This document shows, in pieces, positions 7,239 to 57,952 of a DNA stretch of 64,000 nt (positions are counted from its first letter, which is position 1; every line of letters begins with the position of its first letter). The position numbers were made by a program, and so were the translations under genes. Origin of the DNA: Eledone cirrhosa (Eukaryota); NCBI GenBank assembly GCA_964016885.1, contig OZ024741.1:404736001-404800000 (forward strand), read 5' to 3'. The notes beneath the pieces are model-generated. The model was not told the origin of the DNA. It was given only the letters and a program-made list of their open reading frames with translations, and made no database searches.

Positions 7239-7467
7239 GAGTGCTCCAATCTGCATACTGAGGTGGTGGTATACAACCAACATATACTCAATATATATAT
7301 ATATATATCTATATATATATATATATATATATACACACCCATATATATATGTATATGTATATGTATATGTAGGTATAGATATAGATATTTTTTTATTTTG
7401 CTTAGATATTTTGCTTTCTTTGCTTTAACTGCATGCCCACATATGTACGGCAAAAACAAACGGGAGT

Positions 7468-7510
7468 AATCGACAGTCCTGTTTCTCGCTCGTTACCAAT
7501 TATCAAGACT
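7468..7510 (-). ncRNA. HHR with U3-A8 core in a dispersed relative of the 310-bp repeat
   Basis: agtc-TTGATAA-ttggt(aacg)agcga-GAAA-cag(ga)ctg-TC-gatt. Confidence 0.55.
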
Positions 7511-8509
7511 TCTCAGTCTTTAGCTTCTACCGAGAATTATAGAAGTTGGATTCTTATAGAATTCCAGCATTATTTTTTAATAGCTGATTAAACAGAGTGT
7601 TTGCGGATCCAGCAAAAATTAGGTATTAGTATTGGTGCTCTGAAATAGCGATGTATCTATAGTATATTTGATAATATACCGTATGTTTAATTTAAAAAAT
7701 GTTTTTGCCGAGAATAAATAAGTGGCATAGTCACTACTTTAAAATTCATAGTGAATGGTCTTTAAAATGTTTTTAATTAAACATACAGTATATTATCAAA
7801 TATACTATACCTACATTCATGTATATATATAAAATTTGGTCGTTTTGGAAGCCTCAACAATGCAGATGGGTAAATCTCCGGGTAACAGGATCCGGTAGTG
7901 AAGAGAGAGATGTAAGAGGAAATGTAGAATGAGATGTATAGTGTGTAGAAGGACGTAGGAAAGAGTGTAAAAAATAAAAATAACATGAGATAGAGTTACC
8001 TTGGGAAAGATTTAATTGTCCCTATATTTCGGATTTCGCATCCAGCAACTGGGGGGGGGGTTCCAAGGGGGAGAGTTATCTGTCAGAGAGTAACGGTACG
8101 TGGCCTCTGTTGTCCGTCGTTTGTGTGTAACTGAGATATTCTCTAGAGCGCACGTGCTACGGAAAAGTTGCGGTCAAGCAAAGGTCGAGGGAGCTCCTCT
8201 TTATTGTGGGAGTGGGACGGTGCTAGCTGTCAATCCATTGTACTACTTATGTGTACTAGTCTTTGTTACTGGCAGTGTAGTAGTCGCTCTCTATATATAT
8301 AATTGTTTCTACTTTAGGCACAAGGCCAGCAAATACCCAGTACATTACTGGTACTTTATTTTATCGACCCCGTAAGGATGAAAGGCAAAGTTAACCTTGG
8401 CGGTATTTGAACTCAGATAATGAAGTGTGGTAAGGAACCAGGTGGACCATAACGCACCAGAGTACTCGATACTTTGGGTAGCAGAGTGGGTAATAGGAAA
8501 AGGTTCAGG

Positions 8510-9081: not shown

Positions 9082-9143
<62 letters not shown>

Positions 9144-9773
9144 GATAAATCTACCAAAATGTACGGTAATGTCCAATCCGTATGAAGAACTCAATGTAAT
9201 CCGAATATCATGAAAAGAGAAGATGTTTTCGATGAAAAATACAGGAAAACAGAGTCAAGATAAATTAATAAAAATATTGAATAAACAAAGAAACAGTTCC
9301 TTATATAAAAAAATTCATCATTTTACGGTCGTTTCTAGGATATATATGTTAGTGTTGGTATGCATATCATATAGATCTAGGTAAAATTTTTACAAATTAT
9401 CAGAAGGAATATACATACCCACACATATATATGCTGTCTTCAGAAATAATTATATTTGTTCATTGAATAAAACCAACAAAGATTTAATATAATAGGTCTA
9501 AATTAAATCTTTGTTGGTTTTATTCAATGAACAAATATAATTATTTCTGAAGACAGCATATGACCTATTTCCATCCCTAAAATAATCTTTCATTCATAAT
9601 ATTCTTTCCATCCAAAACTGAAATTTACCTTCCTCTACCCCTAAATTAAGGTTCTATTACTAATATTTTACCATCTTGACCTTCAGTATCTTTCTATTGG
9701 TCAATTCAAAACCTGTTCCCAAACAGACCTATTGTATTAAATCTTTGTTGGGTTTTTTCAATAAACAAATATC

Positions 9774-9907
9774 ATTATTTCTGAAGACAGCATAATTATG
9801 TGTGGGTATGTATATTCCTTCTGATAGTTTGTAAAAATTTTACATAGATCTATATGATATGCATACCAACACTAACATATATATCCTAGAAACGATCGTA
9901 AAATGAT
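9774..9907 (+). ncRNA. HHR with ~100-nt stem-loop II; inverted copy at 9317-9450
   Basis: attattt-CTGAAGA-cag...tgtgggtatgtata...tatgcataccaaca...cta-GAAA-cgatcg-TA-aaatgat. Confidence 0.6.
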
Positions 9908-9960
9908 GAATTTTTTTATATAAAGAAGTTTCTTTGTTTATTCATTATTTTTATTAATTT

Positions 9961-11395: not shown

Positions 11396-11774
11396 GGTCG
11401 CCAATTCCAGCAGCATGGATTAAAGTTGTTATTGAGACACGAGTAACATAATAACGACTTCAACCGCAGTAATTAGAGATGAAATGTTTGTTTATTTATA
11501 TGGTTGAAGTTACAGATAAAAACAGGTTACAAAAGGGAATGTGCCATTGCGCCGTTAAGCCGGCGAGGCTAGGGGTGCAATATCTCACTCTTACATTATG
11601 CGTGTTGCTGGCTTGAAGTTTCCGGTACAAGAGAGAGATTCTTCAAATCTTCGCGGGGAATTTCTTCCTCAGGGCGCGTAGGGATACATCCTCTTCTTCT
11701 GGCGCTGATTGGCTGAACTGAGCCAAATCACGCACAGAGAATGTATGTGAGCCCGCGGAATGTAGGTCACTACA
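11396..11774 (-). mobile_element. LTR-retrotransposon 5' LTR + PBS-like fragment
   Basis: Minus strand starts TGTAGTGACC, contains AATAAA and is followed by TGGCGACC. Homologous to 27433-27800. Confidence 0.55.
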
Positions 11775-11775
11775 T

Positions 11776-11807
<32 letters not shown>

Positions 11808-11846
11808 ATATATATATATATTATATATATTATATATAATATATAT

Positions 11847-11889
<43 letters not shown>

Positions 11890-11996
11890 TATATATTATA
11901 TATATTATATATAATATATATATATATAATATATATATATATATATAATATATATGTATATATATATAATATATATATATATAATATATATATATA

Positions 11997-14900
11997 TAGT
12001 ATTTCAGTATACATATATGGATGTACATCTTTGACTTAATTGTTTGAGCGTCAGTCATACAAAAGTGAGTTACAAACGAAACGAAATTTAATTTCGTTTC
12101 GTTATTTGTTTTTATCGTCTCCGTTGAACCGGTACTTACTCACACTCTATGCAAGTTGGTCTGCCCACTACTAATTTTCATAGAAAAAGCATATAGCGAT
12201 ATGTGCTTTTACGATTCTCTAGAGAGGCCGGAAGATAGGTAAATATTGCTGATGAGTTGTAACAACAACGAAACTAGTTCAATATTCCTTGTCTGGCTTT
12301 CTGGAGAATAGAGGAAAGGTGTTTCCTCAAAAACCAGTATGACTCTAAAAACCGGTTTGTCTGTGTGTTTACATACAGAATAGCTGGCCACTCACAGTAG
12401 AGTGATCAGTGAAAAAAAACTTGGTACATCTACATATGTATACGTGTGTGTATTCATATACATACTAGTATTTCAGTATACATATATGGATGTACATCTT
12501 TGACTTAATTGTTTGAGCGTCAGTCATACAAAAGTGAGTTACAAACGAAACGAAATTTAATTTCGTTTCGTTATTTGTTTTTATCGTCTCCGTTGAACCG
12601 GTACTTACTCACACTCTATGCAAGTTGGTCTGCCCACTACTAATTTTCATAGAAAAAGCATATAGCGATATGTGCTTTTACGATTCTCTAGAGAGGCCGG
12701 AAGATAGGTAAATATTGCTGATGAGTTGTAACAACAACGAAACTAGTTCAATATTCCTTGTCTGGCTTTCTGGAGAATAGAGGAAAGGTGTTTCCTCAAA
12801 AACCAGTATGACTCTAAAAACCGGTTTGTCTGTGTGTTTACATACAGAATAGCTGGCCACTCACAGTAGAGTGATCAGTGAAAAAAAAACTTGGTACATC
12901 TACATATGTATACGTGTGTGTATTCATATACATACTAGTATTTCAGTATACATATATGGATGTACATCTTTGACTTAATTGTTTGAGCGTCAGTCATACA
13001 AAAGTGAGTTACAAACGAAACGAAATTTAATTTCGTTTCGTTATTTGTTTTTATCGTCTCCGTTGAACCGGTACTTACTCACACTCTATGCAAGTTGGTC
13101 TGCCCACTACTAATTTTCATAGAAAAAGCATATAGCGATATGTGCTTTTACGATTCTCTAGAGAGGCCGGAAGATAGGTAAATATTGCTGATGAGTTGTA
13201 ACAACAACGAAACTAGTTCAATATTCCTTGTCTGGCTTTCTGGAGAATAGAGGAAAGGTGTTTCCTCAAAAACCAGTATGACTCTAAAAACCGGTTTGTC
13301 TGTGTGTTTACATACAGAATAGCTGGCCACTCACAGTAGAGTGATCAGTGAAAAAAAACTTGGTACATCTACATATGTATACGTGTGTGTATTCATATAC
13401 ATACTAGTATTTCAGTATACATATATGGATGTACATCTTTGACTTAATTGTTTGAGCGTCAGTCATACAAAAGTGAGTTACAAACGAAACGAAATTTAAT
13501 TTCGTTTCGTTATTTGTTTTTATCGTCTCCGTTGAACCGGTACTTACTCACACTCTATGCAAGTTGGTCTGCCCACTACTAATTTTCATAGAAAAAGCAT
13601 ATAGCGATATGTGCTTTTACGATTCTCTAGAGAGGCCGGAAGATAGGTAAATATTGCTGATGAGTTGTAACAACAACGAAACTAGTTCAATATTCCTTGT
13701 CTGGCTTTCTGGAGAATAGAGGAAAGGTGTTTCCTCAAAAACCAGTATGACTCTAAAAACCGGTTTGTCTGTGTGTTTACATACAGAATAGCTGGCCACT
13801 CACAGTAGAGTGATCAGTGAAAAAAAACTTGGTACATCTACATATGTATACGTGTGTGTATTCATATACATACTAGTATTTCAGTATACATATATGGATG
13901 TACATCTTTGACTTAATTGTTTGAGCGTCAGTCATACAAAAGTGAGTTACAAACGAAACGAAATTTAATTTCGTTTCGTTATTTGTTTTTATCGTCTCCG
14001 TTGAACCGGTACTTACTCACACTCTATGCAAGTTGGTCTGCCCACTACTAATTTTCATAGAAAAAGCATATAGCGATATGTGCTTTTACGATTCTCTAGA
14101 GAGGCCGGAAGATAGGTAAATATTGCTGATGAGTTGTAACAACAACGAAACTAGTTCAATATTCCTTGTCTGGCTTTCTGGAGAATAGAGGAAAGGTGTT
14201 TCCTCAAAAACCAGTATGACTCTAAAAACCGGTTTGTCTGTGTGTTTACATACAGAATAGCTGGCCACTCACAGTAGAGTGATCAGTGAAAAAAAACTTG
14301 GTACATCTACATATGTATACGTGTGTGTATTCATATACATACTAGTATTTCAGTATACATATATGGATGTACATCTTTGACTTAATTGTTTGAGCGTCAG
14401 TCATACAAAAGTGAGTTACAAACGAAACGAAATTTAATTTCGTTTCGTTATTTGTTTTTATCGTCTCCGTTGAACCGGTACTTACTCACACTCTATGCAA
14501 GTTGGTCTGCCCACTACTAATTTTCATAGAAAAAGCATATAGCGATATGTGCTTTTACGATTCTCTAGAGAGGCCGGAAGATAGGTAAATATTGCTGATG
14601 AGTTGTAACAACAACGAAACTAGTTCAATATTCCTTGTCTGGCTTTCTGGAGAATAGAGGAAAGGTGTTTCCTCAAAAACCAGTATGACTCTAAAAACCG
14701 GTTTGTCTGTGTGTTTACATACAGAATAGCTGGCCACTCACAGTAGAGTGATCAGTGAAAAAAAACTTGGTACATCTACATATGTATACGTGTGTGTATT
14801 CATATACATACTAGTATTTCAGTATACATATATGGATGTACATCTTTGACTTAATTGTTTGAGCGTCAGTCATACAAAAGTGAGTTACAAACGAAACGAA

Positions 14901-15865
14901 ATTTAATTTCGTTTCGTTATTTGTTTTTATCGTCTCCGTTGAACCGGTACTTACTCACACTCTATGCAAGTTGGTCTGCCCACTACTAATTTTCATAGAA
15001 AAAGCATATAGCGATATGTGCTTTTACGATTCTCTAGAGAGGCCGGAAGATAGGTAAATATTGCTGATGAGTTGTAACAACAACGAAACTAGTTCAATAT
15101 TCCTTGTCTGGCTTTCTGGAGAATAGAGGAAAGGTGTTTCCTCAAAAACCAGTATGACTCTAAAAACCGGTTTGTCTGTGTGTTTACATACAGAATAGCT
15201 GGCCACTCACAGTAGAGTGATCAGTGAAAAAAAACTTGGTACATCTACATATGTATACGTGTGTGTATTCATATACATACTAGTATTTCAGTATACATAT
15301 ATGGATGTACATCTTTGACTTAATTGTTTGAGCGTCAGTCATACAAAAGTGAGTTACAAACGAAACGAAATTTAATTTCGTTTCGTTATTTGTTTTTATC
15401 GTCTCCGTTGAACCGGTACTTACTCACACTCTATGCAAGTTGGTCTGCCCACTACTAATTTTCATAGAAAAAGCATATAGCGATATGTGCTTTTACGATT
15501 CTCTAGAGAGGCCGGAAGATAGGTAAATATTGCTGATGAGTTGTAACAACAACGAAACTAGTTCAATATTCCTTGTCTGGCTTTCTGGAGAATAGAGGAA
15601 AGGTGTTTCCTCAAAAACCAGTATGACTCTAAAAACCGGTTTGTCTGTGTGTTTACATACAGAATAGCTGGCCACTCACAGTAGAGTGATCAGTGAAAAA
15701 AAACTTGGTACATCTACATATGTATACGTGTGTGTATTCATATACATACTAGTATTTCAGTATACATATATGGATGTACATCTTTGACTTAATTGTTTGA
15801 GCGTCAGTCATACAAAAGTGAGTTACAAACGAAACGAAATTTAATTTCGTTTCGTTATTTGTTTT

Positions 15866-15868
<3 letters not shown>
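11997..15868 (+). mobile_element. 469-bp tandem array (~8.25 near-identical units), one type I hammerhead ribozyme per unit; retrozyme-like
   Basis: Period 469 (one 470 step from an A9 vs A8 run), visible from the repeated 60-aa pseudo-ORFs at 12209, 12678, 13148 ... 15493. Each unit holds aatattg-CTGATGA-gttg(taacaa)caac-GAAA-ctag-TT-caatatt. (TA)n on both sides. Confidence 0.88.
12242..12286 (+). ncRNA. Type I hammerhead ribozyme (first of 8; others start 12711, 13181, 13650, 14119, 14588, 15057, 15526)
   Basis: Canonical core CUGAUGA/GAAA. Stem I aatattg/caatatt (7 bp), stem II gttg/caac, short palindromic stem III ACTAGT. Predicted GUU cleavage after 12279. Confidence 0.9.
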
Positions 15869-17341
<1,473 letters not shown>

Positions 17342-20648: not shown

Positions 20649-20975
20649 GTACTAAAATTTGTATATATACATATATATATATGTAAGTATGTTTTTGAGG
20701 TATATATATATATCAAGTAGGAATATTTTCGAAACAGCGAATTGGTTTGAAATTATTAGAAATGTAAGCTATCGCCGTATTTTGACTAAAGAAATTAAAG
20801 AAATTATTTAGCCTGATAGTGGGGTTAAGAACCCTCGGAGAAATGGAAACAGATGAGTATTGACGTACATGTACGTCAATACTCATCTTTTTCCATTTCT
20901 CCGAGGGTTCTTAACCCCACTATCAGGCTAAATAATTTCTTTAATTTCTTTAGTCAAAATACGGCGATAGCTTAC

Positions 20976-21023
<48 letters not shown>

Positions 21024-21286
21024 AGTATATGTTGGTTGTATACCAACACCTCAGTATGCAGATTGGAGCACTCAACGAAGTGCGCAGGTTGGTTTGGTTA
21101 CTCCGGAGTAATGTAAAATAAAATAAAATAAATAAGTCAAATGTTTAAAATTTGGCTTCGTTTATTACGGCCATATATATTTCGGTGACAGCCATCTTTG
21201 GCTGTGACCTCTTCAGGCAGTCCGAATCAGTGTGGGTTGTTATTTCACTGAGGAACTGTGTACTCGTCTCTAACACGCTAATTCGG

Positions 21287-21341
21287 ACTGCCTGAAGAGG
21301 TCACAGCCAAAGATGGCTGTCACCGAAATATATATAGCAGT
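21287..21341 (+). ncRNA. Type I HHR, same family as 19380; inverted mutated copy at 21167-21221
   Basis: actgc-CTGAAGA-ggtcacagcc(aaagat)ggctgtcacc-GAAA-tatata-TA-gcagt-aataaa inside fold-back 21118-21390. Confidence 0.8.
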
Positions 21342-21501
21342 AATAAACGAAGCCAAATTTTAAACACATTTGACTTATTTATTTTATTTTATATATATAT
21401 ATATATATATATCTGCCTCTCTCTCTATATATGTGTGTGTGTGTGTTTGTATCTATCTATCTATCTAACTAACTATTTATCAATATATTTGTCCCTCAAT
21501 A

Positions 21502-22113: not shown

Positions 22114-22447
22114 TGTGTGTGTGTGTGGATATATATAATATATAACGCAATGTTCGAATGTTTGCTTTGTATGTCAGTCCAGGTTTAACAGAAGATTTCA
22201 TATAATGCTGGTGCTGCTACTGCTGCTGCTATTGTTGTTGTTATTGTTACTGGTGCTGCTGCTGCTGATGATGATGATGAATGATGATGACATCTACGAG
22301 AAATTACGTATCACATATTAGATTCTAGCAAGAAATCAAATTGGATCGGTGTGAGTCCAAAATAATTCGTGATCAAAACGTAGTCTTCACTTTTATAAGA
22401 AATTCTCTACCCAGTCACCAATCTACTATATATATATATATATATAT

Positions 22448-23887
22448 AAATTGGAATAAATGCTCTGAAATAGCGATATATATGTGAATATAGACATAGA
22501 ATATTCGAAAATATTCTGTATGTTTATAATAAACATTTTGAAGACCTAATCGCTATAGAATAGAATACGTCACGTATTACAATTAGATTCTCGATAAAAG
22601 CAAGGGAAGTAATCTACGCGTTTCATTCTTTTTAGAAATCATCAGGACTACATATCCAGTGCTTTTATCGAGAATGACACAGCTAGAGACTTATAGAATA
22701 CTTAGCTGTGTACAGGAACTGGTTTGAAAGAGCGGTTGCCGGTCCGGCAGAAATTAGAAATTGGAATAAATGCTCTGAAATAGCGATATATATGTGAATA
22801 TAGACATAGAATATTCGAAAATATTCTGTATGTTTATAATAAACATTTTGAAGACCTAATCGCTATAGAATAGAATACGTCACGTATTACAATTAGATTC
22901 TCGATAAAAGCAAGGGAAGTAATCTACGCGTTTCATTCTTTTTAGAAATCATCAGGACTACATATCCAGTGCTTTTATCGAGAATGACACAGCTAGAGAC
23001 TTATAGAATACTTAGCTGTGTACAGGAACTGGTTTGAAAGAGCGGTTGCCGGTCCGGCAGAAATTAGAAATTGGAATAAATGCTCTGAAATAGCGATATA
23101 TATGTGAATATAGACATAGAATATTCGAAAATATTCTGTATGTTTATAATAAACATTTTGAAGACCTAATCGCTATAGAATAGAATACGTCACGTATTAC
23201 AATTAGATTCTCGATAAAAGCAAGGGAAGTAATCTACGCGTTTCATTCTTTTTAGAAATCATCAGGACTACATATCCAGTGCTTTTATCGAGAATGACAC
23301 AGCTAGAGACTTATAGAATACTTAGCTGTGTACAGGAACTGGTTTGAAAGAGCGGTTGCCGGTCCGGCAGAAATTAGAAATTGGAATAAATGCTCTGAAA
23401 TAGCGATATATATGTGAATATAGACATAGAATATTCGAAAATATTCTGTATGTTTATAATAAACATTTTGAAGACCTAATCGCTATAGAATAGAATACGT
23501 CACGTATTACAATTAGATTCTCGATAAAAGCAAGGGAAGTAATCTACGCGTTTCATTCTTTTTAGAAATCATATATATTCACATATATATCGCTATTTCA
23601 GAGCATTTATTCCAATTTCTAATTTCTGCCGGACCGGCAACCGCTCTTTCAAACCAGTTCCTGTACACAGCTAAGTATTCTATAAGTCTCTAGCTGTGTC
23701 ATTCTCGATAAAAGCACTGGATATGTAGTCCTGATGATTTCTAAAAAGAATGAAACGCGTAGATTACTTCCCTTGCTTTTATCGAGAATCTAATTGTAAT
23801 ACGTGACGTATTCTATTCTATAGCGATTAGGTCTTCAAAATGTTTATTATAAACATACAGAATATTTTCGAATATTCTATGTCTATA

Positions 23888-23892
<5 letters not shown>
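22448..23892 (-). mobile_element. 310-bp tandem array (~3.6 units, 22448-23572) followed by one inverted unit (23573-23892); one HHR per unit; retrozyme-like
   Basis: ttggaataaa recurs at 22451, 22761, 23071, 23381. The sequence after 23573 is the reverse complement of the unit. (TA)n on both sides. Confidence 0.85.
22609..22651 (-). ncRNA. Type I HHR (copies 22919-22961 and 23229-23271 on minus; 23725-23767 on plus)
   Basis: gtagtc-CTGATGA-tttct(aaaa)agaat-GAAA-cgcg-TA-gattac. Stem I 6 bp, palindromic stem III ACGCGT, U-U at base of stem II. Confidence 0.82.
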
Positions 23893-23923
<31 letters not shown>

Positions 23924-24482: not shown

Positions 24483-24548
<66 letters not shown>

Positions 24549-24766
24549 AGGGAGTGTAACTTGGAGTTACTGTAGGTTCACCCGGGTGAGCACTCGATGT
24601 TTAGGTTCACTTCAGTGTCGAGATGTAGAGCTAGACAGAGTGTATTATAGTGAAATAAGATAACAAGGACGATTGGTTACTCCTTCATTATGTTTATTGG
24701 TGACGCGCGTTTCGTCACTGACCAGCTCAAGGCATGTATATTCATTTTTGCATTAGCATTACAAGG

Positions 24767-24851
24767 GGTCTGACGAGCCGCGAATTACAGAGTCGGGTCA
24801 GATCGATACAGATCGAACCTTGAGCTGATCAGTGGCAAAACGCGCGTCACC
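24767..24851 (+). ncRNA. HHR with long loop II (G12 mutated here; GAAA kept in the inverted partial copy ~24698-24732)
   Basis: ggt-CTGACGA-gcc...ggc-AAAA-cgcgcg-TC-acc...aataaa. Confidence 0.55.
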
Positions 24852-24952
24852 AACCAATAAACGTAATGAAGGAGTAACCAATCGTCCTTGTTATCTTATT
24901 TCACTATACATATATATATATATATTTATATTTAAAAGTTAAACAAGGTTCA

Positions 24953-29236: not shown

Positions 29237-29267
<31 letters not shown>

Positions 29268-29507
29268 ATAGATATAAATATTGGTAAAAGGAAAAGAAAA
29301 TGCTGACAAATTTTTCCCAGTGAAAAATAGTTTAATTAGGAATAAGTAAAAATTAGTAATAGTATTGGTTAGTATTCAGTTTTAGTTTTAAGTTTTTACC
29401 GGTTGCGCATTTCTAATGCTTTTCAAAAATAATTCTGAGATAGAGCGCCCGTGATGTTTGCTCTATTCAGATTAGAGCAAACATCACGGGCGCTCTATCT
29501 CAAAATT

Positions 29508-29545
29508 ATTTTTGAAAAGCATTAGAAATGCGCAACCGGTAAAAG
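29508..29545 (+). ncRNA. HHR-like motif TTGAAAA/GCAA inside fold-back 29279-29660; mirror copy ~29393-29429
   Basis: ttt-TTGAAAA-gcatt(aga)aatgc-GCAA-ccgg-TA-aaa. Confidence 0.5.
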
Positions 29546-29687
29546 CTTAAAACTAAAACTGAATACTAACCAATACTATTACTAATTTTTACTTATTCCT
29601 AATTAAACTATTTTTCACTGGGAACAATTTGTCAGCATTTTCTTTTCCTTTTACCAATATATCACAACTCGTGTGTTACACCTCTAT

Positions 29688-29757
<70 letters not shown>

Positions 29758-30321: not shown

Positions 30322-33300
30322 CTACAGGCTGATATAGAGAGAAGGCCCATTCACTCGGGCCATTCTCGCCACTTTCACCCACCTTTCATAAAATTTGCTG
30401 GGGTACAGCACCTCTCTCTTCATCCTGATTCTTCTTCCAAAGTGGTATTTGAAAAAAAGAATCAGTTGTTGGCCGGAGAGAAAGGTGTCTGACCTCAGCC
30501 CTTTCAACCTTGTCCACCATACAACCTCTTTCGCCATAGCTATCACACAAAGGAAAACCGCCTCTCCTTCGTTTTTGAAGGAGGGTGGCGGTTTGATCAT
30601 GACAATGGACTCGGTGGTCAACTGGATTGGTCCCACCCGCGACAATAGTCGTTCTACATAGCCCCACAGGTCAGTGACGCCCGGGCAGTATATGAATGCG
30701 TGCGCGACGGTTTCTTCGTCTCGCACGCACCTCGGACAGATCTTTTTTGCAGGGTCCCTGCCCGGACGCCCATGTCTGTAGAGCTTGTCTCGAACTGGTA
30801 GAGCTCCTCGGTAGCACTGCCAGGCCAGGGACTTTTGGAAGTTGTCCATCGATCCCGGGCGGAAGGTCCTACCGAACAGACTGGCCAGTTCATCTTCCTC
30901 TACGCCTAGAGTTTCACCGAGCGCGTCGTCGCACTTGCTGCGGATCAACCCTCTATAGAATGACGAAGTGGAGTCTCCACTGATCGCCGGCTCCGCCTGC
31001 CAGAGGGCTGTGAGCGCCTGAGCACATTCGATGTGCCAGTCGCCCATTTTCCTCAGTCTTTGCTTGACCCAGGACTGCAGCTCGGTCAGCGAGACGAGTC
31101 GTGGGAAGGCTCGCCTCACGAACGGGGCCCACACCGGTTGTCCGATGAGGAATACGTAGAGATGCCGGAGCATGAGCGCGTGTTTGCGCATCGTCAACCA
31201 CGGCATCCCCAGCCCTCCGTTTGAAGGGTGTTGGCAGCAGATGGATCTTCTCACCAAAGGAGCCCGCCTCTTCCAAAGGAATCGGAAGAGCGCGCGTTCC
31301 ATTTTGGCGAGCGTTTTGGCTGGACAAGGCACGACGGTCAAGCGGTAGTAGATGGCGGACGCTATAAAAGTGTTCGCCACCTCCGCTCGACCTTTCAAGG
31401 ATAGTTTGCACTCGGCCCACTTCTGGGTGAGTGCAAACACCTTGGCCGTTACTTCGTTCCAGTTCTTCTCCACCTGGAGGTCCGGACCAAACCAGACCCC
31501 GAGCAGCTTTACCGGTCCTTCCGTCCAGCGTCCGACGACGCCATCGGAAGGCATCGGTTTGCCTCTCCACGATCCGAGTTGCAAACCGATGGACTTGTCC
31601 CGGTTCAGCTTCGCTCCTGTGAAACTTTCGTATTCCTTCAGTAAGGTGGCGACTTCCTCGATTTGCGAGGCGCTCGACACCATTACTGTCACGTCGTCGG
31701 CGTAGGCCGACGCCGCTTTCCGCAGTCCCGGTTCCAGAGGGATGCCCTGCAATAGCTCCAACTTCCGCAGTAGTGGCCCGAGAGTCAGTACGTACAGAAG
31801 GGAGGAGAGAGGGCATCCCTGTCGAATGGATCGTGTAATATGGAACGGCTCCGAGAGGTAGCCGTTCACCTTGACCCTTGAGCAGATGTTGCTGTTGTGC
31901 ATTGCAGCAATCCAGCCCCTGAACACGGGTCCGAAGCCTGCCGCCTCGAGCACCGCATCCAGGTAACGATGGTCAACCCTATCGAAAGCCTTAGACTGAT
32001 CCAAGTTGATCAGGGCCCCACCGAAGCCGGGTTTACACCCTACCCTCTCTATGATGTATCGCATGAGGTGGAGGTTGTCGTGTATGGACCTGGTCGGGAT
32101 TGCGCATGTCTGCGCTTCTCCCAACAGGTTCTCGACGACAAACGCCAGCCTCTTTGCCAACACCTTGGCCAAAATCTGTAACTCTGTGTTTAGCAGAGTT
32201 ATGGGCCGGAAGTTGCCTATGTCATTCCCCCTTATTCTCGTCCTTCCTGATTAGTGTGACCACGCCCCCGGTTACAGAACTGGGAATTCTCCCGTTCTGT
32301 TGCCAGTTGCAGTAGACCGCTTCCAGGAGACCGGAGAATAAGTCCGGCATTGTTACGTAAAATTCGTAGGGTAGACCGTTGAGACCTGGAGATTTGCGTT
32401 TGCCGCATTGGCTCAGCGCGTCCCCTATCTCAGTGGCTGAAATCGGCTTTTCGCAGAGCTTTGCCTCGCTGTCCGAGAGTCGCGGTAGGCCGTCGAGGTA
32501 TGGACCGAAATCCATAGTCTCTCCCCCCCCCCCTCCGAACAGCTGAGCAAAGTGCCGCTGAAAAGCCGCACACATCTGCTTCGGCTCACGTATGACGCGT
32601 CCGTTTTGGTCCTTCAAAGACCGAATCGTGGACTTGTTGCCACTTTTTGCCTCCGTCACTCGGGCCCAGCTAACAGCTTTGGCTCCCTCGTTTCCCAGAG
32701 CACGTATTTTGCTTCTGACAACGCAGCCCTCGTGCTTTGCGTCGAAGAACTGGTCCAAGGCCGTTCTCGTTGCTAGCACGCTGGCTACGTTGCCACTTCT
32801 AATTGCCTCTTCTACTTTATCTACCAGTTCCTTCTCGGTTCTATTTCTATCTAACGCTAATTCTTTACTAAAAACTATCGAGTCTAATCTAACTGCCCTC
32901 TTGAGAGAGTACCACCATCTGTTGTTGACAATGGCCCTGTCAAGTGCTGTTTAACTAAAGTGCTAATCCGTCTACTGTAGGCTTTGCTTGTCGGTAACGA
33001 CAAGTTCAGCTTCCGGTAGCCGGGTCCTTGTCTATGGGTTCTATCAAGGTTGGCCATGCAGGTCACTAGTTTGTGATCTGAATAGGCAACCATGAACATT
33101 TGTGGACAGCTTAACATGTCCCTATCCTTATTTCTAACTAGAACCCTATCTGGGTACGATATAGATGTTCCGCTACGATTACTCCACGTCCACAGTGGCG
33201 CAGTCAGAAAATCTAGTCGATATCTATCGGCCAGGTCAAATCGGTCGATTAACTGTTAGAGGCTGTTACACCCCCCGTTATCGGGACATGCTCCCACATA

Positions 33301-33753
33301 GTCCCAACGTGCATCTAGGATTCCATTCCAGTCCCCCACTAAAAGCAAGGAGCGGGACGTTCCCAGAAAAGTCTCTAGACGTTTGAAGAAGTCTGGCCGC
33401 GGTGTCCCGGATGGGGCATATGCGGCCACCAGCCTGAAGGCTCCACCTTCACTACCGTCAACGTCTAGGACCACCAGTCGACCCTCCGGGTCCAGATGTA
33501 CCGTCTGTGTTGCGAGGCCCAGGTGTTTCCGCAGCAAAACGGCAACTCCGCCCCCACCTTCCGGTTGACAGAGAGATGCGTAGATCTCAAAGTCGTCGAA
33601 GATGGGGGCCAGCTGTCGCTCGCTGTGGATCCTGGACTCGCAAATGGCTACCACATCCATACTGTGCGACCTGAGGTCGTTTAAGAGTTTAGCCTGTTTC
33701 CAGGGCATCCCCAGGCCGCGTACGTTCACACATCCAACTCTTATATTGGCCAT
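30322..33753 (-). pseudogene. Tx1 ORF2 (APE endonuclease + RT + zf-RVT), disrupted
   Basis: NVRGL, GDWN, SDHK, DQSKAFDRVDH, QGCPLS and YADD motifs spread over several frames. Confidence 0.9.
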
Positions 33754-33786
33754 GTTGGTGCTGAAAAGTTAAAAGAGGAAAAGAGA

Positions 33787-35694
33787 TCATTCACCCTTCG
33801 TCTCCTGGGGACCAGGCCGCACGATTTCCATGGGGGTGTTGGAGGGGTTGTCTGGATGGGTGGTGGTTTCCGGCGGGGTGGGGACGGAGATGTTTGGTGG
33901 GGTGGGGTCTGGTGGGATGGGGGTGTCTGGGGTGGGGAGACATTTGAGAAGGACGCGGTTGAGTGGTTTCACGCAGGAATTCCCCACATCCTTCTGAAAT
34001 ATTTTTTTTAGGGACCTATAAGTTTGTATAGGGACCCTAATCAGTTTTAGGTTCAGTTTTTTGCTATTTTTAATAGAGTGGGCGAAAGTTTTCCCTTCGG
34101 TTTTCACCGAAAGGTCGTTCTTGATGGTCTCCATTAGTGTTTTGTTTTCAGTGTTTATGTAAGTGTAAGTGTAATTTTCTTGTGTTGTGTTTGTTTTTGT
34201 CTGTAGTTCTTGTGTGTGCTTTCGTTTTCTTGTAGGTATTTTGTTTTCAGGAGGTGGGGGTTTTATTTGTGATGTTTTTGTTGTTTGTGTTGGTGGTTGT
34301 ATGTTTGTGGTAGTGTTTGCTGGTTTTTTGCTTTTGTGATGTCTTTTCTTTTTTTTCGAGCGATGGGGTTCTCCCTCATCTTCACTGGGTGATAGCGAGA
34401 TAGCCTCATCTGTTGTATCGTCTGTGTGATTGGGGAGGGGTATGTCTTGGGGAGCTGTTGTGTCTGTATGTGATTTTGCAGTGGTTTTAGGTGGAGTGGG
34501 GTTGGGTGGGACTGTGTTTATTGTGGTTATTTTTGTGTGTTGGTGTTGTTGTGGTGGTGTTGGTGGTTGTGTTGTTTTGATGGGTGTCGGCAGAAGAGCC
34601 TTTTTTTGGTTCATTAATTTAGGACAGGAAGCCCTCAGGTGACCCCTGCTAAAGCAATGGTAACATGAAGGCCGCCTACCCTCAACCGAAAAGTTTATGT
34701 AGGTGAGTCCGTCCAGGACTACACGTTGTGGGATCATAGCTATTCGCTCTGGGCTCATTTGCCCCAGAACTTCAATGCTAGTCCTATTGAATACATCTCT
34801 TGGGGACTTTCCTACTGACAGTATTCTGTCTTCATCAAAATTGATGAAGCCGCACAGTATCCACCATATGTTCACCTTTGGTGTGACACTCGTGATTCTG
34901 ATCTTTTGTGTTCTTTTTCCCATGTATGTAGGGAAAAAGGTGTACAGGTTGGATACAATTGGCGACACAGTAATTTTGGGCCATCAATTGATCCTTCATG
35001 AGTACCGAAATACTCCCAAAAAGTTTGCTTCTTTGAATGAATGCAATATCATTCATTGAATTTTTGAAAACCAGATCAATTTCTTTCTGTGACAATTGGA
35101 CTGGTTTTCGGGTAGAATTGGAAACTGTCCTAAAAACTATCGTTTTGAGAGCAGTTTCCTTGCGAATTTCTACCGGAGAATTGATGCTGAAAGCACCATT
35201 TTTTTCGAAAGTGACATATCTCCTAGCGTCCTTTAAAAGTTGTTCAGCATTTGTTATGTCGAGATATATCAATTCTTCCTTTTTTTTAACTTTCTCTGTA
35301 AAGGAGATTTTGGTTTCTTTGTGGAATCCGTGTTGTTGGTGTTGTCATTATTGTTGTTATTGTTGTTGTTATTCTTGTTGTCACCGATGTTGGTATTATT
35401 CGTATTTTCCTTGGTGTTGTTGTTGTCTTTGATGCTGGTGTTATTGGTGTTGTCTTTATTTTTTTCTTTGTTGTTGTTATCATTGTTGCTTTTATCATCA
35501 TTATTGGTGTTGCTGTTATTTTTGTTGTCATCGAATTGTTTGGTGTCATTTGTGTTGTTTGGATATGAATTCGTTTTTACATTTTCATTTCGTCTTTCCA
35601 TCTCTGTAGTATCTAGTGAAGAAGAGGTTGTTGACTGCGAGCTTTGTAGTCTTACCGCCTCTCCACCACCATTATCGTTGGACGCAGCGTTCAT
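33787..35694 (-). pseudogene. Tx1 ORF1 (zinc knuckle, N/T/P-rich low complexity), frameshifted
   Basis: Three overlapping ORFs. VEGRRPSCYHCFSRGHLRASC aligns with the equivalents in copies B and C. Confidence 0.82.
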
Positions 35695-35952
35695 AACGTA
35701 ATCAAAATTTTACAATATTTTTTCCAAGATCCTATGGAGAAAAAATTTTTCAAATGGATATTCCGCCCCTGTAGGGGCGAAAATGAGTTGACCCACCACC
35801 TTAAGGTCCAGACGGGGGGGGGGGGGTCAAGTTACATAATGATATAAAATTTAACTAAAAACTGACGTTTTTTTCTTACATAAATTAACGGAAACTTCTC
35901 CGCGAAGTTACACACGTCTGATAGAGAGAGAGAGAGAGAGAGAGATATAGAG

Positions 35953-36016
<64 letters not shown>

Positions 36017-36249
36017 TTCTTTATTAGCCACAAGAGCGCAACAAGAAAGGGGACAATACAAAGACATGCCGGGGATTTTACATACAGTCGTGTAAAAAAT
36101 ATAAAAACAAACAATTTCAACAATCGAAATCCCCAATAGGGGGGAGACGCTACAAATGGGTTGTTTAATACCCCGTCGATAGAACAACCCTCAACTCGAA
36201 GAGCGTGTTGTGCAAGTGCTCCTTTCTTTCTTTTGTTCTCTTCCTCAAC

Positions 36250-39200
36250 CTACAGGCTTATAAACAGAGAAGGCCCAATCACTCGGGCCATTTTCGCTTC
36301 ATTCACCCACCTTTCAGTAAATTTACTGGGGTGCAGTGCCTCTCTCTCCACCCTGATTCTCCTTCTAAAGTGATACTTAAAGAAGGGAATCAATTGTTGT
36401 CGGGAGAGAAAGGCATCTGTCCTCAGTCCTCTCAACCTCGTCCACCATATAACTTCTTTCACCATAGCCACCGTACAGAGGAAAACCGCTTCTCTTTCGT
36501 TTTTGAAAGAGTCTGGCGGTTTGATCCTTACTATGGACTCGGCAGTCAACTGTATTTGTCCCATACGCGACAGCAGTTGTTCTGCATAGTTCCACTGGTC
36601 GCTTACGCCCGGGCAGTGTACAATTGCGTGCAGAACTGTTTCAATGTCCTGCGCACATCTTGGACACGTCCTCTTGGAAGGATCCCTGCCAGGGCGTCCG
36701 TGCCTGTAGATCTTGTCACAAATCGGTAGAGCTCCTCGGTAGCACTGCCAGGCCAGGGACCTCTGGAAGTTGTCCATAGGTCCCGGGCGGAAAGTCCTAC
36801 CAAACAGACTGGTGAGCTCATCGTCTTCGACGCCCAGAGTCTCTCCGAGCACGTCGTCGCCCTTGTAACGTACAATCCCTCTATAGAATGTCGAGGTGGA
36901 GTCTCCACTGATTGCTGCGCCCGCTTGCCAGAGGACTGTGAGCGCCTGAGCGCATTCAATGTGCCAGGCGCCCATCGTTTTCGGTCTTTTCTTCACCCAG
37001 GACTGCAGCTCCGTTAGCGAGACGAGCTGTGGGAAAGCCTGTCTCACAAACGGTGCCCACACCGGTTGGGGGTCGCTGAGGAATACCTGGAGATGCCGCA
37101 GCCTCAGCGCATGTTTGCGCATCATCAGCCACAGCATTCCCAGCCCTCCGTTGGAAGGGTGCTGACAGCAGACGGATCTCCTCACCAGCGGAGCCTGCTT
37201 CTTCCACAGAAACTGGAAGAGCATGCGTTCCATCTTGGCGAGGTGTTCACGGGGACAAAGCACGACAGTCAAGCAGTAGTAGATGACGGACGCTATGAAA
37301 GTGTTCGCCACCTCCGCTCGACCTTTCAAGGACAGTTTGCACTCTGCCCACTTCTGAGTGAGTGCAAACACCTTGGCCGTGACCTCGTTCCAGTTTTTCT
37401 CCACCTGGAGGTCTGGACCGAACCAGACCCCGAGCAATTTCACCGGACCGTCCGTCCAGCGTCCAACGACGCTGTCGGATGTCATCGGTTTGCCTCTCCA
37501 CGTACCGAGTTGCAAACCGACAAACTTGTCTGGGTTTAGTTTTGCTCCCGCCAGCGTTTGGTATTCTTTCAGTATGTTGCAGATCACCCCGGTTTCCGAG
37601 GTGCTCGACACCATTACTGTCACGTCGTCGGCATAAGCCGACGCCGCTTTGCGCAGTCCCGGTTCTAGGGGGATGCCCTGCAACAGCTCCAATTTCCGCA
37701 GTAGTGGCTCTAGAGTCAATACATACAGAATGGAGGAGAGAGGGCATCCTTGTCGAATGGAACGCGTGATTGCGAACGGCTCCGATAGGTAGCCGTTCAC
37801 CTTGACCCTCGAGCAGATGCTGGTGTGCATCGCCTCGATCCATCCTCTGAACACGGGACCGAAACCGGCCGCCTTGAGAACCGCTTCCAAGTATCGATGG
37901 TCGACCCTATCGAATGCCTTAGACTGATCCAAGTTGATCAGAGCCTCACCGAAGCCGGGTTTACTACCCACCCTCTCTATGATGTATCGCATGAGGTGGA
38001 GGTTGTCGTGTATGGACCTGGTCGGGATTGCACACGTTTGCGCTTTCCCTACCAGGTTCTCGACGACAAGCGCCAACCTCGTCGCTAGCACCTTGGCCAA
38101 AATCTTTAACTCTGTGTTGAGCAGAGTTATGGGCCTGAAGTTGTTAATTTCGTCCCCCTTGTTCTCGTCTTTCCTGATCAGCGTTACTACGCCCTTGCCT
38201 GCAGAACTGGGAATTCTCCCGTTCTGCTGCCAATTGCAGTAGACGGCTTCGAGGACGCCAGAGAACAAGTCCGGCATGCCTATGTAAAATTCGTAGGGTA
38301 GACCATCTAGACCGGGTGACTTGCGTTTCCCGCAGCGGCCCAGAGCGTCCCGTATCTCAGTGTCCGTGATCGGTCTTTCGCAGAACTCGGCGTCCGTGTT
38401 CGAGAGACGCGGCAGGCCATCGAGGTATGAACTAAAGTCCATTGCCCCGTTCGGCTCACCGTCGTTCTGCTTAAACAGTCGCGCAAAGTGCCGCTGAAAG
38501 GGCGCGCACATTTGCTTGGGGTCAAGTAGCACGCGTCCGTTTTGGTCTTTCAAAGACCGAATCGTGGACTTGTTGCCACTTTTTGCCTCCGCCACTCGGG
38601 CCCAGCTGACAGCTTTCGCTCCTTCGTTTCCTAGAGCACGTGTTTTGCTTCTGACCACGCAGCCTTCGTGTTTCGCATCGAAGAACTGGTCCAGTGCCGT
38701 TCTCGACGCTAACACTCTAGCCGCGTTGCCACTTCTAAGTGCCTCCTCTACCTTGGCTACTCGTTCTCTTTCTATTCTGTTTTTCTCTAAGGCTAACTCT
38801 CTGCTATGCCCTATCGACTCTATTCTAATTGCTTTCTTGAGAGAGTACCACCATCTATTGTTGACGATGGCTCCCGTTAACTGTTGCTTGACTAGTCTAC
38901 TTATCCGTTCACTGTAAGCTTTACGTGCCGGCAACGACACGTTCAGCTTCCAGTATCCGGGACCCTGTCTATGTATTCTATCACGATTGACTAAGCAGAC
39001 GACTAACTTGTGATCTGAATAGGCAACCATGTGCATTCGTGGACAGCTTAACATCTCCTTGTCCCTTTCTCTAATGAAGAACCTATCTAAATACGATCTA
39101 GATGTCCCACTGCAGTTTACCCACGTCCACTGTGGTGCAGTCGGGAAATCCAGTCGATACCTATCGGCCAGTTGGAATTGGCCGATTAAAGTTTTGAGGC

Positions 39201-39696
39201 TGTTGCACCCCGCTCTACTGGGACATGCTCCCACATAGTCCCATCGTGCATCTAGGATACCATTCCAGTCCCCCACAAAAAGTAAGGAGCGAGACGTTCC
39301 CAGAAAAGACTCTAGACGCTTAAAGAAGTCTGGCCGTGATTGCGATTGCCCGGTCGGGGCATAAACGGCCACCAGTCTGAAGGCTCCACCTCCGATACTG
39401 TTCACGTCTAGGACTACCAGTCTACCCTCCGGGTCCAAGTGTACTTGCTGTACTCCGACGTCCAGGTTCTTCCCAAACATAACAGCCACTCCACCTCCAT
39501 CTCCTGGCTGACAGAGAGATGCGTAGATCTCAAAGTCGTCGAAGATGGGGGTTAGTTGCTGCCTGTTGTGGATTCTGGACTCGGTGATGGCTATCACATC
39601 CATACTGTGTGACCTAAGGTCGTTTAAAAGTTGGCCCTGTTTCCAGGGCATCCCTAGGCCACGCACATTCACGGTTCCAACTCGTAAACCAGCCAT
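36250..39696 (-). CDS. Tx1-type ORF2: APE endonuclease, reverse transcriptase, C-terminal zinc-binding domain (1148 aa)
   Basis: Uninterrupted ORF with VNVRGL, TES, YAP, GDWN, LDRF, SDH (APE); GPGYWKLN linker; KSPGLDG, FRPITLLN, DQSKAFDRV, QGCPLS, YADD, LLGV (RT); CPRC..H..HC. Confidence 0.95.
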   Translation of the reverse strand: MAGLRVGTVNVRGLGMPWKQGQLLNDLRSHSMDVIAITESRIHNRQQLTPIFDDFEIYASLCQPGDGGGVAVMFGKNLDVGVQQVHLDPEGRLVVLDVNSIGGGAFRLVAVYAPTGQSQSRPDFFKRLESFLGTSRSLLFVGDWNGILDARWDYVGACPSRAGCNSLKTLIGQFQLADRYRLDFPTAPQWTWVNCSGTSRSYLDRFFIRERDKEMLSCPRMHMVAYSDHKLVVCLVNRDRIHRQGPGYWKLNVSLPARKAYSERISRLVKQQLTGAIVNNRWWYSLKKAIRIESIGHSRELALEKNRIERERVAKVEEALRSGNAARVLASRTALDQFFDAKHEGCVVRSKTRALGNEGAKAVSWARVAEAKSGNKSTIRSLKDQNGRVLLDPKQMCAPFQRHFARLFKQNDGEPNGAMDFSSYLDGLPRLSNTDAEFCERPITDTEIRDALGRCGKRKSPGLDGLPYEFYIGMPDLFSGVLEAVYCNWQQNGRIPSSAGKGVVTLIRKDENKGDEINNFRPITLLNTELKILAKVLATRLALVVENLVGKAQTCAIPTRSIHDNLHLMRYIIERVGSKPGFGEALINLDQSKAFDRVDHRYLEAVLKAAGFGPVFRGWIEAMHTSICSRVKVNGYLSEPFAITRSIRQGCPLSSILYVLTLEPLLRKLELLQGIPLEPGLRKAASAYADDVTVMVSSTSETGVICNILKEYQTLAGAKLNPDKFVGLQLGTWRGKPMTSDSVVGRWTDGPVKLLGVWFGPDLQVEKNWNEVTAKVFALTQKWAECKLSLKGRAEVANTFIASVIYYCLTVVLCPREHLAKMERMLFQFLWKKQAPLVRRSVCCQHPSNGGLGMLWLMMRKHALRLRHLQVFLSDPQPVWAPFVRQAFPQLVSLTELQSWVKKRPKTMGAWHIECAQALTVLWQAGAAISGDSTSTFYRGIVRYKGDDVLGETLGVEDDELTSLFGRTFRPGPMDNFQRSLAWQCYRGALPICDKIYRHGRPGRDPSKRTCPRCAQDIETVLHAIVHCPGVSDQWNYAEQLLSRMGQIQLTAESIVRIKPPDSFKNEREAVFLCTVAMVKEVIWWTRLRGLRTDAFLSRQQLIPFFKYHFRRRIRVEREALHPSKFTERWVNEAKMARVIGPSLFISL

Positions 39697-39743
39697 GTTG
39701 GTGAAGAAAAGTTGGAGAAAAAGGACGAAAGGTGCACTTACCT

Positions 39744-41612
39744 TTACGTTTCCTGGAGATCGGGTTGTTCAATCTCCATTTGGGTGCTGGATGGGGTGTT
39801 GGGTGGGGCGGGGAAACCTTTCAACAGGACGCGGTTGATGGCTTTGTGGCAGGGGTTGCCCACGTCCTGTGAAAATTTAATTTTTAGGTCTTTATGGGTT
39901 TCCATAGAAACCCTTATAAGTTTAAGGTGTGGAGACGATTCTGCCTTGACGAAAGTTTTGCCCTCCGTCTCCACCTTGGGGTTTTGAGAGATGACCTCCA
40001 TCAAACTCTTGTTGTTTGTGTTGATGTATGCGTATTGTTGTTTGTGTTTTTGTTGTGTTGTTTTAGTTTGTTGTTCATCCGGGAGTTTTCTTTTTATGGT
40101 GGGTGCTTGTGTTTGGGGTGGTGTTGGTGCTGGTTTTGCTGATAGGGGGATGTTTGACTGTGGTGTTGTTTGTGTTGTTGTTTGTGTCTGTGGTTGTGTG
40201 TTGGTGTTGGTGATTGGAGTTTTGGGGGTTTTGTGGTGTTTCTTTTTTTGTTTTTTAGATTTCCGCGGTTCTCCCTCTTCTTCACTTAAAGAAGGAGAAG
40301 CAGCTGCATCCGTCGATGAATAATCATCGTTAGGTGTGTGGGGTAAGGGTATGTTGTGTGGTGGTGGTGGTGTTTCAGTATGTGTGTTTGTGGTAGTGTT
40401 TGATGGAGTGGGATGGAGTGGGGATGTGTTCTTCAGGGGTGTTGTCTCTGTTTTTTCTGTTGTTGTTGGTTGAGTGTCTGTTTGTTTTGGTGTGGTTGCT
40501 CGTTTCGTCTGTCGTTGTACTTGTGGTGGTGATTGTTTTGGTGTTGGTGTTGGTAATAGCGTTTTTTTAATGATGTTGTTGTTGTGTGTTTGTGGACAAG
40601 AGGTTTTTAAGTGAGATGTGCTACCACAGCGAAAGCAGTGAAATTTTCGTCCTTCCACCGAAATGTTTATTTTGTTGTTATTATCAATAACGACTCTTTC
40701 GGATATTTTGGAGATTCTCTCCGGTTTCATTTGCAACAGAATCTCCAAATCGGTGCCCGCCCACCTTTGTCGAATGGATTTTCGTATCGAAAGTATTATG
40801 TCTGTTTCTGGCTCTACGAAGCCAGCCAAGATCCACCCGATGTTAATGCTTGGAGGTATGTTTTTATTTTTATTTTTTGTGTCCTTTTCCCCATGTACGT
40901 AGGGAAAAAGGTCTATGCTTGTGACACTATTGGTGTCACAGAGTTTTTTGGGGCGAGTGCCTCGCTTTTAAACAGTACGGAAACACTTCCGTACTGTTTT
41001 CCTCGCTGGAGAAAATCGACATTTCCTAGAATCTCCTTGAAATAATCTTCTATATCTGCTTGATTAACAAATGTCGGTTTTCTTGACGAATTTGACACAG
41101 TCCTAAAAGTGACTGATCGGCGGTTTGTGTCTTCCTTTATTTCAAAGGGTGAGTTAATTCTAAACCCACCTCTTTCTTCGAAAGTTACACATTTTCTCCC
41201 TTGCTGGAGCATATCTCTTGCGTTGGAGATATCAAGATTTATATAATCTTGTTTCTTGTTGACTGTCTCAGCGAAAGTCATTTTCTTTTTTTTTTGTGGT
41301 ATTGTTGTTGATAATGATGTTATCGTTGTTGGAAATTCTATGTGTAGATGTATCTGTAGAGTTGTTGATGTCTTTTTCATGTGTATGTATGTCAATGGGT
41401 TTTTTTGCTGTGTTTTCCTGTGTGTTATTGTCATTTTTCTCCGCTTCGGCGGTAGAAATTGTAAAGTTTTCAAATGTTGATATATTTTTTTCTTTTGTGA
41501 CAGTTGTATCTATGGCAACGTCCATAGCAGCAGAAGCAGATATAACGTTAATATCTGCCTCTTTCTCTCTCTTTTCTCTATTAACGTTCTCCAGCGTTCT
41601 AGTGTTGCTCAA
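39744..41612 (-). pseudogene. Tx1 ORF1, frameshifted
   Basis: Overlapping ORFs homologous to copy A ORF1 (FRTVSNSSRKP, SVEGR, CCHC knuckle, DVGNPC). Confidence 0.82.
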
Positions 41613-42059
41613 GTTTTTTACTTTGTAAAATCTGATATTTTAAAACAAATATTTAAATAAAATGTTCGCCCCTACAGGGGCGAAAAATGGGATTACCACC
41701 CAGCTGACAATTCAGCTTGGGGGTTAATCTACAAAGTGTTGTATTTTTTTCAAACAATTAGATCGGTTTTTGCATAGAAATTAACAAAAAACTTACCGGC
41801 GATATTCCACACGTCAGACAGAAAGAGAGATAGATAGATATATTTCTTTATTTACCATAAAGGCATAAAAAGAAGGGACAAATACAAAGGGGGAGTTTAC
41901 ATACAATCGAGTAAAAAGGGTATAAAATGAAAATAATCGAAAATAACCTCAAAAGGGAGGGGACGTGATGGGGGTTGCACCCCCCCCCCCGAAAAAGTGT
42001 GCAATCCTTTGCCCGGGGAGCACATGGAGAAGGTGCTCCCCTCTCCTTTACTTCCTTAC

Positions 42060-45000: not shown

Positions 45001-45497
45001 TTGAGGCTGTTACACCCCCCTCTATTAGGACATGCTCCTGCATAGTCCCAACGTGCATTTAGGATGTCATTCCAATCCCCCGCTAGAAGCAGGGAACGCG
45101 ACGTTCCCAGAAAAGTCTCCAAACGCTGGAAGAAGTCGGGCCGTTCAGCTCCGAAAGGGGAGTAGACGGCGACCAGTCTCAAGGCCGCACCTTCACTACT
45201 GCCAACGTCTAGCACCAACAAACGACCCTCCGGGTCCGAGTGCACAACCTGTACGGCAAGACCCAGGTGTTTTTGCAGCAGTACGACAACCCCACCTCCA
45301 CCTCCAGGTTGACAGAGAGATGCATGCACCTCAAAGTCATCGAAGGTAGGGGCCAGCTGCCGCACGACGCTGATTCGAGTCTCACAGATAACCATTACAT
45401 TTATACCACATGACCTGAGGTCATTTAGAAGCTTTGCTTGCTTCCAAGTTGAGCCCAGGCCACGTGCATTCAAACATCCTACTCTTAACAGATCCAT
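42060..45497 (-). pseudogene. Tx1 ORF2 with a single premature stop (GH*TEGP vs GRWTEGP in copy A)
   Basis: TGA in place of a Trp codon at 43263-43265; both halves are in frame. Confidence 0.9.
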
Positions 45498-45530
45498 GTG
45501 GGCGGCAAAGCCAAAGGAGAGTGTAGAGAC

Positions 45531-57569: not shown

Positions 57570-57952
57570 AGTATGTATACGTACATACATATATGTATAC
57601 TGACGTACAGTAGTATGTATATATATATATATACATACATGCACACATATTTATATGTATGTATGGATTCACCGAACATTTATTATAATGCTCGGTGTGT
57701 TTGTAAACAAACATCCCGAATTAAGCCGTAGTGTCTAGCAACCATCGTTGCTCATTTATTGAACACTGACAAAGGAACGCTGTACTACTTTCAAGCATAT
57801 TAGCTATCGTCAGCAACGTATAACTTCCTGCCAGATGATTGAACGTCTGAAAGTATATACTTCCCTTATGCATATTAACGGCTGAGCAGCCTAATTTGCA
57901 TATCGAGTGAGTTAATTTGCATATCAGGCGTTCAATCATCTGGCAGGAAGGT

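Follow-up and report, generated by a model that had tools for sequence, protein, structure and literature searches.

The insertion at 22,448-23,891 of the window (the whole 64,000-nt stretch of DNA analysed here) was probably made in one step by the enzyme of a Penelope-like element (PLE), with reverse transcriptase (RT) and GIY-YIG endonuclease, which would have used a circular RNA as template to extend the two cut strands, leaving two head-to-head arms in (TA)n; we give this reading a probability of about 0.68. The involvement of a PLE, taken by itself, is held with high confidence. The inserted element is best classed as a standard non-LTR retrozyme with a predicted type I hammerhead. An earlier note on this DNA had proposed that one event captured both multimeric copying and the 5' inversion of the Penelope type, and this holds and is general across the family. 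The proposal bears on the route by which retrozymes of animals enter the genome and on the origin of the tails and inversions of Penelope elements, and its footprint is countable: one arm per start site at 40/40 loci, one haplotype in both arms, and a target duplication (TSD) of ~12 nt. The 310-nt unit is also a substrate for a direct test of the PLE enzyme.

Layout of the insertion and its predicted ribozyme

In the assembled contig, the units starting at 22,448, 22,758 and 23,068 were identical to each other at 310/310 nt by sequence comparison, and a fourth unit matched for 195 nt and then stopped at 23,572. TRF gave a period of 310, 3.6 copies and 100% for the array, in agreement with the ~3.6 identical units of the earlier note. 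Base 23,573 is an A that belongs to neither arm. The following 318 nt (23,574-23,891, plus strand), or 1.03 units, are the exact reverse complement of the array, as expected from the one complete inverted unit that had been described before (TA)n resumes. The whole insertion is flanked by (TA)n on both sides, the two halves of the target lying at 22,427-22,447 and at 23,892-23,920 (sequence; for the right half also TRF). The left unique flank is single-copy, the 35-mer across the junction occurs once genome-wide, and no empty-site allele of the insertion was found in the assembly. The insertion is without private variant, without junction microhomology and without measurable TSD; the 'atata' microhomology claimed for the junction is absent, the overlap of the arms being -1, that is, one inserted base.

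Positions in the unit are given as r numbers in the RNA sense, with r1 at 23,762, the first base past the predicted ribozyme cut. The long, distal arm (22,448-23,572, minus strand, 3.63 units, no variant) runs from r283 at 23,572 to r167 at 22,448, and the short, proximal arm runs from r123 round to r130 on the plus strand. Thus numbered, the arms meet 5' to 5' and each 3' end faces the target. The outer end of the distal arm, and of that arm only, carries a 37-nt 'tail' (r131-r167; 22,448-22,484, minus strand), with the same offset in 25/25 resolved two-armed loci.

The unit is 310 nt long, non-coding (longest ATG-started frame 30 codons) and has a GC content of 0.339, which places it within the metazoan retrozyme range of ~170-400 nt, GC <45% and non-coding. 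A hammerhead is predicted on the plus strand at 23,725-23,767 from the Rfam HH9 model, folding and motif reading: helix I of 6 bp (23,725-23,730/23,762-23,767), CUGAUGA at 23,731-23,737, a GUA triplet with the cut after 23,761, a U-U at the base of helix II, and a palindromic helix III. The core, the helices and the GUA triplet are present in every complete unit, and the three units of the array carry the predicted hammerhead on the minus strand, as claimed, at 22,595-22,660, 22,905-22,970 and 23,215-23,280. The break at 23,572 does fall inside the ribozyme core, at A6 of CUGA. No Rfam match to the unit reached the gathering score; the best support, HH9 on unit 1, was weak (21.2 bits, E 0.28), as were the HH9 matches on units 2 and 3. 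Folding of 23,695-23,795 gave z = -5.25 and was better than 200/200 shuffles. A predicted long stem of ~16 bp (23,701-23,790, plus strand) surrounds the ribozyme and, once a monomer is cut, would hold its two ends together by base pairing. Seven kinds of substitution were found in the ribozyme across copies (A2G, A276G, G277A, T284A, T287A, A294C/T, A295G); on our reading they leave the core untouched and either preserve pairs or create new ones, and one insertion among the copies bulges helix I. The substitution pattern may hint at selection on folding.

These features resemble those described for metazoan non-LTR retrozymes in the available text of PMC7229834 and of bioRxiv 10.64898/2026.07.22.740005, namely tandem non-coding units (310 nt, 34% GC here) with one type I hammerhead each, a short palindromic helix III, and co-occurrence with autonomous PLEs; the U-U at the helix II base is shared with axolotl HHR_Amex2 (PMC7229834). 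In the accounts given there, however, the repeats are direct and tandem, with no mention of the head-to-head arrangement, the pair of fixed 3' ends, the TSDs or the (TA)n targeting found here; expression and cleavage are shown there, whereas the element here is known from sequence alone.

Two head-to-head arms with separate fixed 3' ends

An invariant 33-mer of the unit had 16,375 exact matches in the 3.0-Gb assembly, and the first 100 of these by position made up 18 loci, from which a family of ~2,700-2,900 loci was extrapolated. A small family of 13 loci, as first considered, was rejected, since the query that gave it carried a rare allele. The loci are dispersed multicopy arrays, with no LTR-like frame in 32 loci, and the locus at 22,448-23,891 is itself ordinary among the ~2,700-2,900. 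Of the 18 position-ordered loci, 14 were two-armed and head-to-head, 3 were one-armed and 1 ended in a gap. Among the 13 loci with the allele of the window, 11 were two-armed (one running off its contig), 1 was one-armed and 1 was gapped. Inversion is therefore the family norm, with two separate fixed 3' ends.

The outer ends were compared in 25 resolved two-armed loci, comprising those of both locus sets and L058, which was met by accident. All 25 have one arm ending within r124-139 and its partner within r160-172, and a 30-40-nt tail is present at one end. The proximal end is mostly r130, or r139 within a target-like AT tract, and the distal end is mostly r165. Both arms exceed 1 unit in 20/25 loci, and arm length reaches 9.9 units. 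Thus, of the claim that the array ends in one inverted unit, the inversion stands, while the structure is actually one of two arms with separate fixed 3' ends.

A second hammerhead family, with a 469-nt unit, behaved similarly. It was two-armed in 16/21 loci, 20 of which were hand-picked among the matches listed and are biased to long two-strand arrays, and 15/15 resolved two-armed loci ended at r304 and r225-234, an offset of ~72 nt, about twice that of the 310 family. Its array in the window (11,988-15,868) has 8.3 laps, is one-armed and has its 3' end at r304. One arm per site was the rule in 40/40 loci of both families, for which an independent even choice gives 2^-40; one-armed copies use either site. 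Flanks of the (TA)n type were found at nearly all of the 40 loci. In a public sequencing run (X1), contigs leave the unit for (TA)n at 23,621 and 23,889, which are the same two end sites. Target duplications of 12-15 nt were found at four informative loci (L059, L126, L047 and L036); duplications in degenerate microsatellites (9/13 tested), for which there is no null, were left out of this count.

At L031, L032 and L058, and at 11,774-11,998 and 15,866-17,340 of the window, the flanking microsatellites show long periodic imperfections, which are repeated on either side of an insertion over as much as 1.5 kb. They may stem from slippage, from repeated copying of the target or from sequencing error.

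Template, junctions and the proposed mechanism

The 18 loci represented 13 haplotypes (sum of squared frequencies 0.105). Among the within-locus variant columns of the 310 family, 46 were fixed in all laps, 8 were singletons, one was present in 1 of 2 laps, and 0 were intermediate. No two-armed locus of the 18 showed a fixed arm-to-arm difference. Non-reference alleles were common to both arms in 13/14 two-armed loci, the 14th being without informative overlap, and 10 such alleles were common to the arms of L114. Since the laps are fixed per locus and the arms are alike, a monomer-to-multimer step and a common template are needed, and a circle supplies both. The haplotype sharing could equally reflect one molecule or one dominant transcript per cell, which these data do not separate.

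Deviant laps were found at L039/L043, a mosaic in which the outermost lap differs at three sites, and at L042, in which one lap carries another allele, these loci having come from a query that selected for such laps. Unless the assembly is in error at these loci, 'one molecule per event' does not hold universally. A statement drawn from the first locus set, that all private variants are in every lap, was wrong and is contradicted by these loci. The lap at L043:451-1082, which is the outermost of the distal arm and lies on a 19-kb contig with its different three-site haplotype, may be a template switch between two RNAs, a conversion or an assembly chimera.

The 52 inner junction ends were scattered round the unit, with 0 within 5 nt of the cut site, and the break in the ribozyme core at 23,572 therefore looks like chance. 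When each locus was scored against its own unit, 3/25 junctions were dropped for want of a full unit and 22 were scorable. Inserted bases were present at 6/22, and 11/16 non-insertion junctions overlapped by at least 2 nt, compared to 18% in a null of random joins. Junction microhomology, which the earlier note wished to see checked, is thus absent at 23,572/23,574 but present family-wide. Junctions at r250 recur in L115, L126 and L121 though their haplotypes differ; the long stem of the unit is itself formed by r13-28 and r250-265, and this is therefore the likely place for cDNA ends to anneal. At L110:2843-3020, the same r65/r29 junction is present two times, separated by pieces of 129 nt and 43 nt.

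In the reading we prefer, array transcripts would self-cleave at the hammerhead and the monomers would be circularised, as the available text of PMC7229834 suggests. The endonuclease would make a staggered cut in TA-rich DNA with ~12-nt 3' overhangs, and cDNA would start at ~r165 from one 3' end and at ~r130 from the other, the two sites defining the tail. Each RT would circle the RNA for a variable number of laps (3.63 and 1.03 at 22,448-23,891). The two cDNA 3' ends would be joined by 1-3 nt of microhomology or by a few added bases, such as the one A at 23,573, and the second strands would then be filled in. In a stricter form, to which we give an even chance, a PLE RT dimer would have to bind a single circular RNA at two fixed positions, each serving one of the cut DNA strands, with both subunits then rolling round it. 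If this is true, the 'optional' tail of Penelope elements simply reflects how far apart the two positions lie, and animal retrozyme satellites come into being complete, already two-armed and multimeric, in a single step, of which the thousands of loci are a direct record.

The PLE enzyme might instead have primed from two ends, as in twin priming, on an uncut linear multimer from a homogeneous source array, without any circle. We consider this rather unlikely, although several points agree with it. According to the available text of PMC11167929, unprocessed RNA is the main substrate in vitro and hammerhead mutants did not block insertion. The U-U in helix II and a helix III of 2 bp predict weak cleavage of the monomer, and a similar axolotl motif was 22% cleaved as a monomer (PMC7229834, in the text at hand). 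Homogeneous source arms would also yield the same haplotype sharing. Nevertheless, 13 haplotypes, each fixed in all laps, would still need a monomer-to-multimer step, and the arms reach 9.9 units, a length that copying of a linear template could reduce but never extend. When laps were counted from the 3' end, a minor allele was shared by the two arms at equal lap number in 0/27 cases, a weak comparison in that many minor alleles may be later mutations or errors.

It is improbable that one arm was copied from RNA and the second arose by fold-back or self-priming, with endonuclease trimming of the intermediate giving the second end. Such a course would likewise give identical haplotypes in both arms, and palindromic junctions are found at L033, L113, L114, L064 and the autonomous PLE-like copy L100, whose junction is a near-perfect hairpin and therefore suits fold-back. 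However, the longer arm may be either one (distal in 14 and proximal in 11 of the 25 loci), only 6/26 junctions link positions at most 20 nt apart (13% expected, p = 0.12), the positions joined at 23,572/23,574 lie 150 nt apart, and the tail corresponds to two RT start sites in vitro in the available text of PMC11167929.

Growth of the arrays after a short PLE-type insertion (a monomer and an inverted piece) by unequal crossing-over, in line with the local amplification favoured in the available text of bioRxiv 10.64898/2026.07.22.740005 (Li, Clavereau and Pollet 2026), is very improbable for the 310 family. A two-lap variant in L047 and a two-unit duplication in L051 speak for it, and the latter accounts for two of 5 intermediate columns in the 469 family, which show some local amplification. 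On the other hand, the 18 loci of the 310 family have no intermediate-frequency variant, both arms are multimeric and unit-identical, and many arms are shorter than 2 units. A fold-back read chimera or an assembly artefact is hardly credible, since the flanks differ on the two sides, the arms are asymmetric, the two-site rule for outer ends holds in 40/40 loci, duplications flank the informative copies, and run X1 shows both ends.

Penelope-like elements, precedents and relatives

The footprint described above matches accounts of PLEs. In the available text of PMC8557442, PLE copies come with an inverted, 5'-truncated copy and, at one end, a tail of 30-40 nt; in that of PMC3846280, they have a head-to-head inversion, a 31-nt tail on one inverted pLTR and an 8-10-bp TSD. 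A self-priming model was proposed for the insertion in the latter and an EN-mediated tail in the former. As far as the text of PMC11167929 at hand goes, purified PLE protein cuts AT-rich DNA and extends both strands, and the RT starts in vitro at two internal positions of the RNA, between which the tail lies. Start sites did not differ between strands there, which tells against the mechanism preferred here, and steps past priming were left unvalidated by this 2024 study. The available text of PMC9977147 held nothing on PLE insertion structure. With EN+ PLEs as described in the accessible parts of PMC3846280, PMC8557442, PMC11167929 and PMC4209133, the 310 family thus shares the head-to-head 5'-truncated inverted copy, the 30-40-nt tail, the TA-rich target, the short TSD, a hammerhead upstream of the 3' ends and two internal RT starts. 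It differs from those accounts in that the element lacks an ORF, each arm is a multimer of a single small unit, and the tail, 'optional' there, is found in every two-armed copy and always on one arm only; the 469-nt family further differs in its offset of ~72 nt, and no local pLTR sequence link was found.

The genome holds ORFs with RT and GIY-YIG of up to 1096 codons stop-to-stop. The local ORFs with RT and C-terminal GIY-YIG carry a CxxxxCxxC linker and would be of the Neptune/Nematis type by the description in the available text of PMC8557442. Of 10,595 GIY-YIG candidates, 150 were scored, and among 45 GIY-YIG loci (43 distinct places) from these candidates, neither a PLE sharing sequence with the unit nor a unit match next to an ORF, as in a pLTR, was found. 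The 310-nt element itself contains no ORF with RT and GIY-YIG, and no ORF at all. The link to PLE reverse transcription drawn in the earlier note is an inference from the footprint. Some of the ORFs have a related hammerhead family (r226-305, 74%) nearby, whose copies, in the four that were read, are short and contain no ORF. The copy L100 is two-armed, lies in (TA)n and has a hammerhead with the same U-U; its arms end ~127 and ~172 nt past its own hammerhead cut, compared with 130 and 165 in the retrozyme. At the distal 3' end of the PLEs L093/L100, 14 nt (L100:6557-6570) are complementary to the 5' side of the hammerhead stem of the 469 family (12,235-12,248 of the window), which may be chance.

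In L1 twin priming, each of the two target 3' ends primes on the RNA, and the outcome is a 5' inversion whose junction shows microhomology. Here, unlike in L1, there is no poly(A) priming, and the starts are internal, fixed and ~35 nt apart, and therefore both arms copy the same sequence, whereas L1 arms copy adjacent segments. Three tandem LINE copies (APE endonuclease, RT, zf-RVT) lie at 30,322-46,997 of the window on the minus strand, one ORF measuring 1172 codons stop-to-stop; these LINE ORFs were rejected as related machinery, the family being without poly(A) or a LINE-type 3' end.

Tandem cDNA templated by a circle and mobilisation by PLEs have already been proposed (PMC4209133, PMC7229834, PMC7761336 and bioRxiv 10.64898/2026.07.22.740005, in their available text), PLEs being named only as likely retrozyme partners in what is available of Cervera and de la Pena 2020 (PMC7229834) and of the 2026 bioRxiv paper. 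In the main texts of the papers searched, all outside subscription journals, neither two-armed retrozyme insertions nor the one-arm-per-site rule were found described.

The unit is present in 20 runs with 18 organism labels from 17 studies, and no RNA run is among these listed holders. Horizontal transfer, which the 20 holder runs first suggested, was set aside: all four runs in which the SINE-like repeat of the window was compared (X9, X4, X5 and X7, 4 of the 20) share that repeat too, and carry-over of lineage DNA, or kinship, is therefore the simpler reading. Two raw-read runs under the label of X4 gave 0 reads with the unit in the 1-2% of reads sampled, a result that carries no weight as a test. 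In X1, the depth summed over the unit is ~4 x 10^5, which would agree with a genome having as many copies as extrapolated above.

At 2,323-2,719 and ~7,440-7,828, also head-to-head and in TA-rich DNA, are relatives that are 70-80% identical and whose ribozyme has decayed, and the retrozyme lineage is therefore old in this host. In both, the long stem is retained and the hammerhead is decayed or replaced. Among the 53 segments between TA runs in the window, 15 contain inverted repeats, including 9,140-9,959, 20,713-20,978, 21,021-21,389, 24,546-24,910, 29,251-29,692, 57,634-58,118, 60,735-60,926, 60,957-61,131, 62,100-62,862 and 63,082-63,240; many of these resemble short two-armed insertions, with hammerhead-like cores in several.
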